Assembly: GCA_963830235.1 (NCBI GenBank)
Contig: CAWHLR010000026.1
Location: forward strand, 4,792 to 68,791
Length of the DNA: 64,000 nucleotides
DNA from: an uncultured Verrucomicrobiae bacterium
GTDB lineage: Bacteria > Verrucomicrobiota > Verrucomicrobiia > Limisphaerales > UBA11358
Direction: 5' to 3'
The notes under the pieces were generated by a model that had not been told where the DNA came from, did not search any database, and saw only the letters and a list, made by a program, of their open reading frames with translations. Shown here piece after piece: positions 38,539-40,070 of this stretch. How positions within the stretch are numbered: the first letter of the stretch is position 1; each line of letters begins with the position of its first letter. The translations under genes were made by a program, and so were the position numbers.

Positions 38539-39073
38539 AAAACATCGAACATCGAACATCGAACATCGAACGCTGAATGAAGCGGACCTTGGCGGCTGGA
38601 TGTTGCGCGAAGGCGATGACCGCGGGCGAAAATTCGATTTGGAGGAGCGATTGCTGGAGTTCGCTTCGGCGGTGATTGATCTATCGGAGAAGCTTCCGCC
38701 TTCGCGAGCCGGGAACCATGTAGCCGGGCAGATTTTGCGCTCCGGCACGTCCCCTTATTCAAATCATGGCGAGGCCGAATCTGCCGAATCGCGGGATGAT
38801 TTCATTCACAAACTCAAAGTTTGTTTGAAAGAACTGCGTGAGACGCGCCGTTGGGCGCGGTTGATTGAGCGCAAGCATTGGGCTAGGGACGATACAACTT
38901 TGAATTTTGTTTTGAGCGAGTCTGAGGAATTAATCCGGATTTTCATGTCCAGCATCAGAACGGTACAGTTGAATGCCCGGAAACAACAGCGGCCTGGTCC
39001 GACCCGTTATCCATCCGTCGAAGCCGGCTAAAAATTCGATGTTCAGCGTTCAATGTTCGATGTTCGATGTTTT
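38539..39073 (+). mobile_element. four-helix-bundle gene cassette bracketed by GAACATC-heptamer inverted repeats
   Basis: The left arm aaaacatcgaacatcgaacatcgaacatcgaacgctgaatg (38539-38579) is matched by the right arm attcgatgttcagcgttcaatgttcgatgttcgatgtttt (39034-39073). They agree at about 29 of 30 positions as inverted repeats. Confidence 0.65.
38600..39031 (+). CDS. four-helix-bundle protein (23S rRNA intervening-sequence protein / Avd family)
   Basis: FDLEERLLEFASAVIDLSEKLP...AGNHVAGQILRSGTSPYSNHGEA...FIHKLKVCLKELRETRRWARL matches the family pattern as I recall it. Confidence 0.75.
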   Translation: MLREGDDRGRKFDLEERLLEFASAVIDLSEKLPPSRAGNHVAGQILRSGTSPYSNHGEAESAESRDDFIHKLKVCLKELRETRRWARLIERKHWARDDTTLNFVLSESEELIRIFMSSIRTVQLNARKQQRPGPTRYPSVEAG

Positions 39074-39963
39074 TCTTAATTAAAAAGTGGGCTTCCTTCG
39101 TGCGCTTCCCGCACACGGTCTTCGCGCTGCCGTTCGCGCTGGCGGCGATGGCTGTGGCGGCGCGGGACAATCGCGGCTGGCCGGGTTGGAAAACTTTCGC
39201 GCTGATCCTCGCGGCCATGGTCTGCGCGCGCACCTGTGCCATGGCATTCAACCGAATCGCCGATCGCAAATTCGACGCGTTGAATCCGCGCACGGCCAGC
39301 CGCCACCTGCCCACCGGCCAGATTTCTTTGTTCAGCGCCTGGCTGCTTTGCCTGTTGAGCGGCGTCGGTTTGATAGCGGCCAGCTTCTTTCTGAATCCGC
39401 TGTGTTTTTACCTCTCGCCCGTTGCGCTGGTGGTGATTTGTTTTTATTCACTGACGAAGCGGTTCACGGATTACACGCACGTTTTTCTCGGCCTCGCGCT
39501 CGCGCTCGCGCCCGTGGGCGCGTGGCTGGCGGTGAAAGGAACGAATGTTTCGATATTGGAAATCTTGCAAATGACCATGCTCGCGCTGGCGGTTATGCTG
39601 TGGCTCGTCGGCTTCGACATCATTTACTCGCTACAGGATTACGAGTTCGACAAATCGCATGGCCTGCATTCGCTCGTCGTGGCGTGGGGACAAAAGAATG
39701 CTCTCCAAGCGGCGTTTCTCGCGCATATGGTCATGTGCGGCCTGCTGCTGGCGTTCGGTTTGCTCTGCCGGTTTCGCATCGCGTATCTCGTCGGCTGGAT
39801 GATCATCGTCGGCTGCCTGGTGCTGGAACATTGGATTGCCCGCCGCCGCAGCCTGAACTGGATCAACGTCGCGTTCTTCCGGCTCAACGCCGTTGTGAGC
39901 GCCGTTTTTTTAATCGTGACGGTGGCGGAAGTGGTGTTTCAGGGTGGGTTTCGGCTGCGTTGA
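39067..39963 (+). CDS. ubiA: UbiA-family aromatic prenyltransferase
   Basis: Polytopic protein with the NRIADRKFD Asp-rich motif and a second DxxxD-like motif (DIIYSLQDYEFD). Confidence 0.8.
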   Translation: MFFLIKKWASFVRFPHTVFALPFALAAMAVAARDNRGWPGWKTFALILAAMVCARTCAMAFNRIADRKFDALNPRTASRHLPTGQISLFSAWLLCLLSGVGLIAASFFLNPLCFYLSPVALVVICFYSLTKRFTDYTHVFLGLALALAPVGAWLAVKGTNVSILEILQMTMLALAVMLWLVGFDIIYSLQDYEFDKSHGLHSLVVAWGQKNALQAAFLAHMVMCGLLLAFGLLCRFRIAYLVGWMIIVGCLVLEHWIARRRSLNWINVAFFRLNAVVSAVFLIVTVAEVVFQGGFRLR

Positions 39964-39965
39964 TT

Positions 39966-40070
39966 GGGGCAAAACATCGAACATCCAACATCGAACGCTG
40001 AACATCGAACGCTTGTTGAAAATGCCCCGATTCGATGTTGGGAGTTCGATGTTCGATGTTCAGCGTTTCC
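39966..40070. repeat. GAACATC-heptamer inverted pair without cargo
   Basis: ggggcaaaacatcgaacatccaacatcgaacgctgaacatcgaacgc ... gccccgattcgatgttgggagttcgatgttcgatgttcagcgtttcc. Confidence 0.8.

Follow-up and report, generated by a model that had tools for sequence, protein, structure and literature searches.

A four-helix-bundle gene between inverted heptamer arrays at a ubiX–ubiA junction is probably an intervening-sequence-type cassette living in a protein-coding operon

We analyzed a 64,000-nucleotide stretch of DNA (hereafter the window) from an uncultured Verrucomicrobiae bacterium of the order Limisphaerales (GenBank assembly GCA_963830235.1, contig CAWHLR010000026.1, positions 4,792 to 68,791 of the forward strand). 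In this window a gene of the S23p family, named for proteins of 23S rRNA intervening sequences (IVSs), sits between a ubiX-family and a ubiA-family gene and is bracketed by inverted arrays of 7-nt units; we refer to the gene with its two arrays, or arms, as the cassette. Positions are those of the whole window. L-numbers denote comparison loci from relatives, taken from a set of about 170 related loci that are mostly metagenome contigs or metagenome-assembled genomes (MAGs). The locus is composed of the following features:

37968–38525, plus strand: ubiX-family flavin prenyltransferase gene (PF02441, 4.5e-41; TIGR00421, 186 bits)
38527–38580, plus strand: out-of-frame former start of the cassette open reading frame (ORF), now a 17-codon ORF MRKRKTSNIEHRTSNAE from ATG 38527 to TGA 38578–38580
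38535–38578, plus strand: left arm, reading GGAAA, then (AACATCG)x4, then AACGCTGAA; 5' strand of the predicted stem
38600–39031, plus strand: four-helix-bundle gene (S23p / 23S rRNA-IVS protein family), 143 aa
39034–39077, plus strand: right arm, TTCGATG TTCAGCG TTCAATG TTCGATG TTCGATG TTTTTC; 3' strand of the predicted stem
39067–39963, plus strand: UbiA-family (MqnP/UbiA-like) polyprenyltransferase gene (PF01040, 168 bits; TIGR01475, 280 bits)

A first-pass annotation of this DNA had placed a 143-codon four-helix-bundle gene between a ubiX end at 38525 and a ubiA start at 39067, and the ORFs together with the Pfam and TIGRFAM scores confirm this layout. The ubiX start, TTG 37968, was inferred from the alignment of relatives; its 3' end carries a Shine–Dalgarno (SD)-like motif, AAGGAG (38517–38522), followed by the stop codon TAA (38523–38525). 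In the left arm, Tandem Repeats Finder (TRF) called (AACATCG)x4.4 at 38541–38571 with 100% matches, the array extending as AACGCTGAA to 38578, and in the right arm it called (TTCGATG)x5.3 at 39035–39071, the right array as read running from 39034 to 39073. The repeat search found the arms complementary at 97% over a 30-nt core (38548–38577 with 39042–39071), as expected from the earlier count of about 29 matching positions in 30. A longer call pairs 44 nt at 82% (38535–38578 with 39034–39077), corresponding to about five heptamers per arm. Because the variant unit AACGCTG finds its mirror image in CAGCGTT, the arms are more symmetric than a mere run of identical units. The two arms are 455 nt apart, and the complementary arrays are predicted to form a stem of ~40 bp around the gene; in the RNA fold of the 565-nt element this terminal stem is closed in both the minimum free energy and the centroid structure (z = -3.5). 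The ubiA ATG had also been placed inside the right arm, and the start codon (39067–39069) indeed falls in the last heptamer of the array at 39034–39077.

The window protein scores above the curated cut-offs of PF05635 (43 bits; cut-off 33.8) and TIGR02436 (76.8 bits; cut-off 24) and matches PDB entry 2rld by sequence at 1.9e-14. An AF2 monomer model (pLDDT 85.7) contains four helices spanning residues 14–30, 36–60, 65–91, and 99–130. With this model, Foldseek returned 2rld (E 2e-6, TM 0.89) and 2gsc (Xcc0516) as best matches, together with weaker structural matches to Avd of diversity-generating retroelements (DGRs) and to a DGR ribonucleoprotein (4dwl/8ub7); 2rld, 2gsc, and 4dwl were each deposited with five chains, A–E. 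By sequence the window protein has no PHROG or bAvd match and its similarity to Avd is undetectable. A conserved helix-2 motif GxxRxxxSxxxNxxE has been reported for the four-helix-bundle family (PMC3936711), and the window protein has R-x3-S-x3-N-x2-E (R47, S51, N55, and E58 in GQILRSGTSPYSNHGEAE), of which R47 and E58 are invariant and S51 nearly so in an alignment of 16 sequences. The dN/dS ratio of the cassette gene (~0.16) indicates purifying selection. This subfamily alone returned upwards of 7,900 close relatives in one search; tblastn detected no further paralogue of the cassette gene within the window, and a defence-system scan (PADLOC) of the cassette protein gave no match.

Database homologues of the window protein (75–98% identity, mainly from Limisphaerales and other Verrucomicrobia) are called at 165–170 aa and start with M(R/K)KGKH(R/P/S)T(S/F)NI(E/Q)H.. 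(MRKGKHRTSNIEHRTLNE), which is the left arm in translation. In most relatives the ORF starts at an ATG 1–4 nt past the ubiX stop, behind an AAGGAG-like motif, and its frame runs through the left arm. Of 105 cassettes, 76 have an ATG ahead of the left arm that is in frame and can be read through the arm without a stop, far above the third expected if heptamer number set the frame randomly; 62 of those 76 lack a start codon where the window protein has Met1. Compared with the 97% identical cassette of L094, one extra A in the window puts ATG 38527 out of frame, so that the 17-codon ORF traverses the left arm, and an ATA-to-ATG change creates a start at 38600.

The association of gene and arms was then examined across relatives. 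A scan with one genome per species yielded 80 loci encoding relatives at 45–80% identity, and in 78 of them the complementarity of the flanks was above the maximum of shuffled controls. The mean flank score was 24.9 for a locus's own arms, 14.5 when the arms of other loci were used, and 7.8 for shuffled sequence; a score of at least 18 was reached at 97% of 77 real gene positions versus 0 of 740 same-span random positions in the same loci. The arms have a median length of 38 nt and a mode of five units. In Verrucomicrobia the unit is AACATCG, AACATTC, AACATCC, AACGCCC, AACGCCG or AACCTTG, depending on lineage; planctomycete bins carry GAATGAC and Gemmatimonadota bins GAATATC. Distant members (25–43% identity) on plasmids of cultured bacteria had inverted tandem-repeat flanks in 10 of 10 cases, built from unrelated heptamers, the hosts being Anabaena, Planktothrix, Pseudanabaena, Gloeocapsa, Euhalothece, Chlorohelix (two), Treponema, Bernardetia, and Monoglobus, from the phyla Cyanobacteriota, Chloroflexota, Spirochaetota, Bacteroidota, and Bacillota. 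A survey of the flanks of other family members had been suggested as a check on the cassette idea; done here in relatives, it found the same kind of flanks across contexts and phyla, and the pattern holds in six phyla with examined context and with many heptamer types. Covariation of the arms was tested by partner permutation and by the dominant heptamer, tandem units leaving the register of a column alignment ambiguous. At the ubiX/ubiA site the same dominant heptamer occupies both arms in 22 of 31 loci, with at least four heptamer types represented, and the observed arm complementarity at this orthologous site was reached by none of 20,000 partner permutations.

The cassette falls precisely where one co-transcribed partner gene stops and the next starts. 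The order ubiX–gene–ubiA occurs in ~35 of the 80 loci, and ~17 further contexts were seen, mostly with the gene co-oriented with both neighbours. Many of these cassettes lie between partners that are usually adjacent, such as HlyD-type adaptor (MFP) and AcrB, ABC ATPase and ABC-2 permease, DUF58 and BatA, two ketoacyl synthases (KAS|KAS), and PreT- and PreA-like subunits. Plasmid contexts comprise HsdS|HsdR, DUF1156|Swt1-HEPN, helicase|N6-methylase, csx2...cas1, and cas2/cas1. The plasmid loci of cultured bacteria (L081–L085 and L166–L170) thus place the family mostly inside defence operons, and Gloeocapsa and Chlorohelix share the DUF1156|Swt1-HEPN position. A separate arrangement was noted in L016, a MAG, where an AACATCG array (2080–2118) and its inverse (4561–4599) enclose a 2.4-kb ubiX–ubiA–HATPase block; there ubiX and ubiA are only 21 nt apart, and the cassette lies farther downstream, past an MqnC-like radical SAM gene.

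So that the cassette gene itself would not bias the sample, metagenomes were scanned with UbiA (81–96% identity), which gave 68 scorable ubiX|ubiA junctions. This cassette was present in 25 of them. A bare hairpin of ~80–165 nt occupied another 24, built from at least six unrelated heptamer families (for example GACGCAA, CACGGAT/CACAGAT, and GATGGAG). The junction was tight in 11, with the ubiX stop and ubiA start overlapping as ATGA in seven, and the remaining 8 held something else. Relatives with an empty site, which the first-pass annotation had proposed to look for, therefore exist in two forms, the ATGA overlap and the bare heptamer hairpin. Among the other occupants is a second PF05635 subfamily (94 and 84 bits) with GAGGATG arms, present in L134 and L142 and truncated in L151. 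BLASTP found no similarity between this subfamily and the window protein; it matches bAvd and the PHROG 'Avd protein of DGR' weakly, and tblastn against phage genomes found nothing. Junction states are intermixed on the UbiA tree, the nearest UbiA neighbour being in a different state for 38 of 101 loci. The median distance from the stop codon to the beginning of a bare hairpin is 1 nt, and that from its end to the ATG is 3 nt (n = 27); where a cassette is present, the ubiA start codon falls within the right arm, at a median depth of 5 nt (n = 56). Inspection by eye of empty, hairpin, and cassette junctions revealed no consistent target-site duplication. At the same time, ubiX–gene–ubiA synteny extends over ~35 verrucomicrobial species with UbiA identity down to 61%, and the gene has also long resided at this junction throughout a whole verrucomicrobial clade.

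Bare hairpins of the same build fill the same junction in relatives, and hairpins without cargo also occur next to the cassette locus in the window itself:

37832–37900, strand not assigned: second-type cargo-less hairpin (ATTTGCG/ATTTACG ... TCGTAAA) upstream of ubiX, called by TRF and as an inverted repeat
39966–40072, plus strand: cargo-less hairpin of AACATCG, AACATCC, and AACGCTG units, arms 39972–40009 and 40031–40068

The hairpin after ubiA lies between the ubiA stop and a Ser/Thr kinase gene. Its arms are 82% complementary over 38 nt, of which an internal 17 nt match perfectly, and it contains no ORF. The pair itself had been recognized in the first-pass annotation, which gave it an 11-nt spacer; the spacer measures 21 nt, and the RNA fold pairs part of it (-46.2 kcal/mol, z -4.85). 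Hairpins with lineage-matched heptamers occur after ubiA in L002, L004, L008, L017, L021, L026, L028, L033, L035, and L036, and the hairpin is deleted in L001. The cassette with its bare companion had been read as a small cassette plus a cargo-less derivative. The data support the cassette and the relatedness of the cargo-less pairs, without establishing the direction: bare hairpins may descend from cassettes or may serve as their landing pads. A terminator scan called none of the heptamer hairpins, which have no T-tails, and no Rfam family covers the arms or hairpins. The hairpin upstream of ubiX (fold z -4.8) adjoins a conserved CAT, that is, ATG on the minus strand, and in relatives other short repeats build hairpins at the same position. 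Beside it, a motif GGACTCAAGCTGTTTC (window 37780–37830) is kept at the nucleotide level while the hairpin sequence varies by species; this motif also occurs in L001, L002, L004, L005, L014, L018, L021, L028, L031, L033, L035, and L037 and may be a minus-strand gene start or a regulatory element. The window has three ATTTACG-type cargo-less hairpins in all (26306–26386, 37832–37900, and 54094–54167), each abutting a minus-strand start codon (CAT on plus) and with RNA fold z from -4.5 to -9.2. The Planktothrix cassette arms share the CGTAAAT unit with these hairpins.

Turnover of the unit at the junction, by gain, loss, and exchange, far outpaces divergence of the genes on either side, and the breakpoints coincide with the outer arm ends. 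Synonymous divergence of the cassette gene is saturated, with a median proportion of synonymous differences (pS) of 0.74 compared with 0.56–0.59 for ubiX and ubiA. Between L010 and L041, pS is 0.04 for ubiX, 0.17 for ubiA, and 0.81 for the cassette gene; the two loci are near-identical up to the ubiX stop, and then the arms differ, with AACATCG x5 in one and AACCTTG x15 in the other. Between the window and L002, the values are 0.26 and 0.25 for ubiX and ubiA and 0.73 for the cassette gene. The comparison with L094 runs the other way: mismatches per 100 nt amount to 12.1 in ubiX, 2.9 across 38526–39073 (0 in the left arm), and ~10 in ubiA, that is, a cassette of 97% identity between flanks of 88–90%. 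The post-ubiA hairpin likewise lies inside a 290-nt tract that is identical to L089 while the surrounding sequence is 7–13% diverged. Protein clusters follow arm type across operons, AACATCC cassettes being found in both ubiX|ubiA and MFP|AcrB and AACGCCC cassettes in ABC|ABC-2 and MBL|YfhO alike. Since the same protein cluster and arm type recur in different operons, the gene and its arms move together. Gene distances also correlate with flank distances (rho ~0.46–0.48). These sequence comparisons indicate that the gene plus its arms is a widespread, frequently exchanged cassette.

We consider it probable that the element is an intervening-sequence-type cassette living in an mRNA operon, not in 23S rRNA. 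Rfam found no rRNA in the window, so the element is not in helix 25 or 45 of 23S rRNA; because this defining rRNA location is missing, it is a variant of the S23p-type rRNA IVS and not a strict member. As in the cassette, the S23p-type IVSs of Leptospira, Coxiella, Brucella, and Haemophilus hold a PF05635 ORF in the loop of a ~28–40-bp terminal-inverted-repeat stem, have variable-copy tandem heptamers directly upstream of or overlapping the ORF start, and are carried in the host transcript, promoterless, sporadic among relatives, and regarded as selfish (PMC4990558). The Coxiella 23S IVS measures 428–444 nt, with a 28-bp terminal stem cut by RNase III and the S23p ORF in the loop; three tandem GACAGAT heptamers and one degenerate copy, of strain-variable number, stand just before the ATG, and the origin of the IVS is considered unresolved, a mobile-element origin having been proposed (PMC4990558). 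The two differ in host, helix 25/45 of 23S rRNA for the IVS and a protein-coding operon stop/start junction for the cassette. The Coxiella IVS ORF is decaying and probably untranslated whereas the cassette ORF is intact and under purifying selection, and RNase III excision has been demonstrated for rRNA IVSs, being a putative step for the cassette.

Under the intervening-sequence reading, a cassette unit consists of a start codon right after the upstream stop, a left array of ~5 heptamers, the core, the stop, and the inverted array, the left array normally being translated as a disordered N-terminal tail of the four-helix-bundle core. The cassette would be promoterless and expressed through read-through and translational coupling from ubiX. 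The SD-like motif and ATG(A) at the ubiX end would serve ubiA in empty sites and the cassette ORF in cassette sites. From the geometry of the site, the hairpin may make the insertion tolerable by re-juxtaposing the ubiX stop/SD region with the ubiA start in the transcript, and a ribosome on the left arm would unmask the ubiA ATG held in the right arm. In the MS2 coat–replicase interaction and the split ribosome-binding sites of T4 genes 25 and 38, a stem hides a start codon that translation of the upstream ORF then exposes, or it brings SD and start into line by looping out sequence. The looped-out stretch in these cases, unlike the 0.5-kb cassette, spans tens of nucleotides or belongs to the adjacent gene, and no homology is implied. 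If the parallel with rRNA IVSs extends to processing, RNase III may cut the stem and release the cassette RNA. At the DNA level, the ~35–40-bp arms may supply homology or structure for copying into, or loss from, hairpins of the same type, so that gain and loss of cassettes by recombination could need no element-encoded enzyme. For the protein, a nucleic-acid-binding pentamer acting on the heptamer arrays is the role we judge most likely; because relatives crystallize with five chains and the arms peak at five units, one may speculate that a ring binds the array.

Several observations weigh against this reading. Cassettes are antisense to their neighbours in Anabaena cas2/cas1, Euhalothece, L039, and L074. 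Arm mismatches are mostly transitions, and sense-strand G.U mismatches (122) show no excess over A.C (146), while some bare hairpins hold an A.C in every unit. This mismatch pattern, read from the sequences, argues against strong long-term selection on a sense RNA helix and fits young arms renewed at the DNA level; the wobble test thus lends no support to an RNA function because a G.U over A.C signal is absent. RNase III cleavage and translational bridging are proposed from analogy and geometry only. The window copy has lost the usual start and so might be decaying. No mobility enzyme, target-site duplication, or excised form was identified. Finally, mosaics seen on single contigs could be strain-chimeric assembly at repeats, although the presence/absence pattern over dozens of independent assemblies could not be explained as assembly chimeras.

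Among other explanations, a DNA transposon or REPIN-like element is unlikely in our estimate. Here the arms would be terminal inverted repeats (TIRs) recognized as single-stranded DNA (ssDNA) hairpins by a transposase acting in trans, for example of the REP-associated tyrosine transposase (RAYT)/IS200-type HUH class, the bare hairpins would be non-autonomous, and the gene a passenger. TIR-like arms, ~100-nt bare derivatives, several copies per heptamer type in each genome, rapid turnover, and breakpoints at the arms all fit, and the window encodes a RAYT domain embedded in PriA (NF047646, 82–86 bits). REP (repetitive extragenic palindromic) and REPIN sequences resemble the bare hairpins as ~100-nt doublets of inverted short repeats that are intergenic, multi-copy, and fast in turnover, but they are built on one conserved REP, whereas cassette arms are tandem heptamers of many unrelated sequences and can enclose a particular gene. 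That a single junction hosts at least six unrelated heptamer families is hard to square with one sequence-specific transposase; target-site duplications are not evident; and the tight link to one protein family is unexpected for arbitrary cargo. The 64 kb hold only three ATTTACG-type and two AACATCG-type pairs, with units differing between sites and genomes, and the RAYT domain is accompanied by a different, GC-rich palindrome unrelated to the heptamers, so a cognate RAYT is not in evidence. Integron cassettes are alike as promoterless single-ORF units with hairpin-forming imperfect inverted repeats that rely on host transcription and are exchanged between genomes, but they have a single 3' attC, an IntI integrase, an attI platform, and arrays, whereas this cassette has arms on both sides and occurs singly within unrelated operons; no integrase was found among the 28 window ORFs of at least 250 aa that were scanned. 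A still less probable account is that of a functionless mutational by-product, in which slippage arrays at intercistronic junctions are made palindromic by template-switch (quasi-palindrome) repair and the gene is an ordinary accessory. The symmetric arm mismatch spectrum, the single and coding-sequence arrays in the window, and the over-representation of heptamer arrays in many bacteria, with inverted pairs of no assigned function (PMC4692102), are in keeping with it, but it leaves unexplained the 97% versus 0/740 bracketing in six phyla, the hairpin feet 1–3 nt from stop and start codons, and the joint movement of gene and arm type between operons.

A gene inherited vertically at a fixed place in the operon, with a flanking stem that co-evolves there and no cassette behaviour, would account for the broad verrucomicrobial synteny and the correlated gene and flank distances. 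It conflicts with saturated synonymous divergence between genomes with nearly identical flanks, with the reversed pattern in the L094 pair, with the mixing of cassette, absence, and bare-hairpin states on the UbiA tree, and with the second subfamily at the same site; we regard it as largely refuted already, rescued only if the mosaics were assembly artefacts, and grade it as very improbable. Marginally lower in our estimate stands a retroelement satellite, in which the protein is Avd-like and the stem-bounded transcript is copied by a reverse transcriptase (RT) encoded elsewhere and re-inserted at hairpin targets. In DGRs, a hairpin or cruciform serves in recognizing the target. Structurally, the cassette protein matches Avd and the DGR ribonucleoprotein, and Avd-related signals, though weak, come from the second subfamily. 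The first-pass annotation had reported no RT and no template/variable repeat (TR/VR) in the window, and this stands: no RT domain was found against Pfam among the 28 ORFs of at least 250 aa, and the repeat search found no TR/VR-like repeat and no A-specific mismatches. Nor was an RT next to the gene in neighbourhoods with annotated flanking genes. Avd thus shares fold and superfamily with the cassette protein but differs in that the cassette has no adjacent RT or TR/VR and the window protein no detectable sequence similarity to it. A DGR proper was rejected, the neighbours being ubiX and ubiA and the window holding neither an RT among the scanned ORFs nor a TR/VR. Ordinary intrinsic terminators or attenuators shared with unrelated genes, which the earlier annotation had named as a possible refutation, would make the bracketing coincidental; hairpins of the same build do stand beside other window genes, but the scan calls no terminator, T-tails are lacking, the arms are 455 nt apart inside operons between stop and start codons, and the association statistics (78/80; 97% vs 0/740) oppose coincidence. 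We rejected the intrinsic-terminator reading for its lack of a scan call and of a T-tract, and give terminators or attenuators as a whole almost no credence.

The arms also invite comparison with heptamer repeats described elsewhere. Heptamer arrays, including ~70 inverted pairs per Xanthomonas genome, have been described without a function, and a G-quadruplex role has been proposed for the G-rich types (PMC4692102). The short tandemly repeated repetitive (STRR) sequences of cyanobacteria and the Xanthomonas GGGAATC arrays are like the arms in being tandem 7-nt repeats, often in inverted pairs, mostly intergenic, and length-variable (PMC4692102), and the Euhalothece and Planktothrix cassettes are flanked by STRR-like units, namely (CTGGTCA)x14, CCCCAAT, and CGTAAAT. 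In contrast, neither S23p nor the stop/start-junction position appears in the text of the heptamer-array paper (PMC4692102). A full-text literature search found no paper that ties PF05635 genes located outside rRNA to stop/start junctions or to inverted heptamer repeats on their flanks; it left subscription journals mostly uncovered, so a prior description is possible.

A wider joint reading, which we offer as a long shot, is that PF05635 genes and heptamer hairpins are ubiquitous, unrecognized, self-propagating intercistronic elements. The pentameric protein would be their maintenance or mobility factor, binding the arrays with about one unit per subunit, as RNA or ssDNA, and promoting hairpin-templated copying into other hairpins, possibly via an excised stem-bounded RNA; 23S IVSs, DGR Avd, and the cyanobacterial STRR heptamers would be offshoots or remnants.

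PF05635/TIGR02436 is a very large family that is routinely annotated 'four helix bundle protein' and has been listed twice as 'CRISPR-associated' owing to its occurrence inside cas operons. Operon-junction cassettes on plasmids, with their cas contexts, would therefore account for these earlier listings. If the genes are generally hairpin-bounded cassettes in arbitrary operons, such associations reflect hitch-hiking and not function. The rRNA intervening sequences, whose origin has been open since the early 1990s, would then gain a concrete source population, and the tandem heptamers known from cyanobacteria, Xanthomonas, and others could be tied, in a testable way, to a gene family. The model also suggests that insertions of 0.1–0.5 kb between translationally coupled genes may be tolerated through looping-out by a long stem.

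Heptamer arrays outside cassettes were noted elsewhere in the window. A heavy-metal P-type ATPase gene (CDS 3217–5559, plus strand) contains two in-frame arrays, (AATCCGA)x4.4 at 3929–3964 encoding SQSEIRNPKSEIE and (CAACATT)x5.4 at 4828–4868 encoding NIQHSTFNIQHP. Both appear to be at surface loops of the protein, and NIQHSTFNIQHP equals the N-terminal tail peptide of AACATTC-type cassettes. A (GAGGATG)x4 array at 36638–36668 forms the first codons, MPSSILHPSSSH, of an NAD-dependent epimerase-like gene (35659–36669, minus strand; family assigned from sequence only), and the second PF05635 subfamily in L134 and L142 has arms of this same GAGGATG unit. The first residues of a NYN/YacP protein, probably MKSEVRSPKPD, are encoded by a (GACTTCG)x5.9 array at 57952–57994.

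The only long direct repeats in the window, apart from short palindromic repeats, are those of a family-2 glycosyltransferase cluster, a ~640-nt duplication of 79–96% identity with copies 2.9 kb apart (22320–22954 and 25209–25844); it is not a DGR template/variable pair because its mismatches are not adenine-specific. The priA ORF (49853–52978, plus strand, 1041 aa) carries its RAYT domain in frame at residues 310–448 (~50780–51196), between the 3'-DNA-binding domain and the helicase core; the NF047646 cut-off is 80 bits, and Pfam Y1_Tnp matches at 26.8 bits. We know of no described PriA–RAYT fusion. The accompanying GC-rich element is a double palindrome found at 51224–51276 inside the priA ORF and again at 53076–53128 just past the priA stop. 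Downstream of ubiA, the frame of the Ser/Thr kinase gene (40121–42417) is split into 40121–40897 and 40921–42417 by a 61-nt palindrome at 40849–40909, GGAGTTCCGCCTTCAGGCGG ... CCGGCTGAAGCCGGAACTCC, located between the DFG and APE motifs, where relatives diverge sharply. The Rfam Acido-Lenti-1 motif occurs three times above the gathering score, at 35463–35508 (minus strand), 35608–35653 (plus strand), and 44208–44251 (plus strand), and two of these matches flank a palindrome at ~35530–35590.

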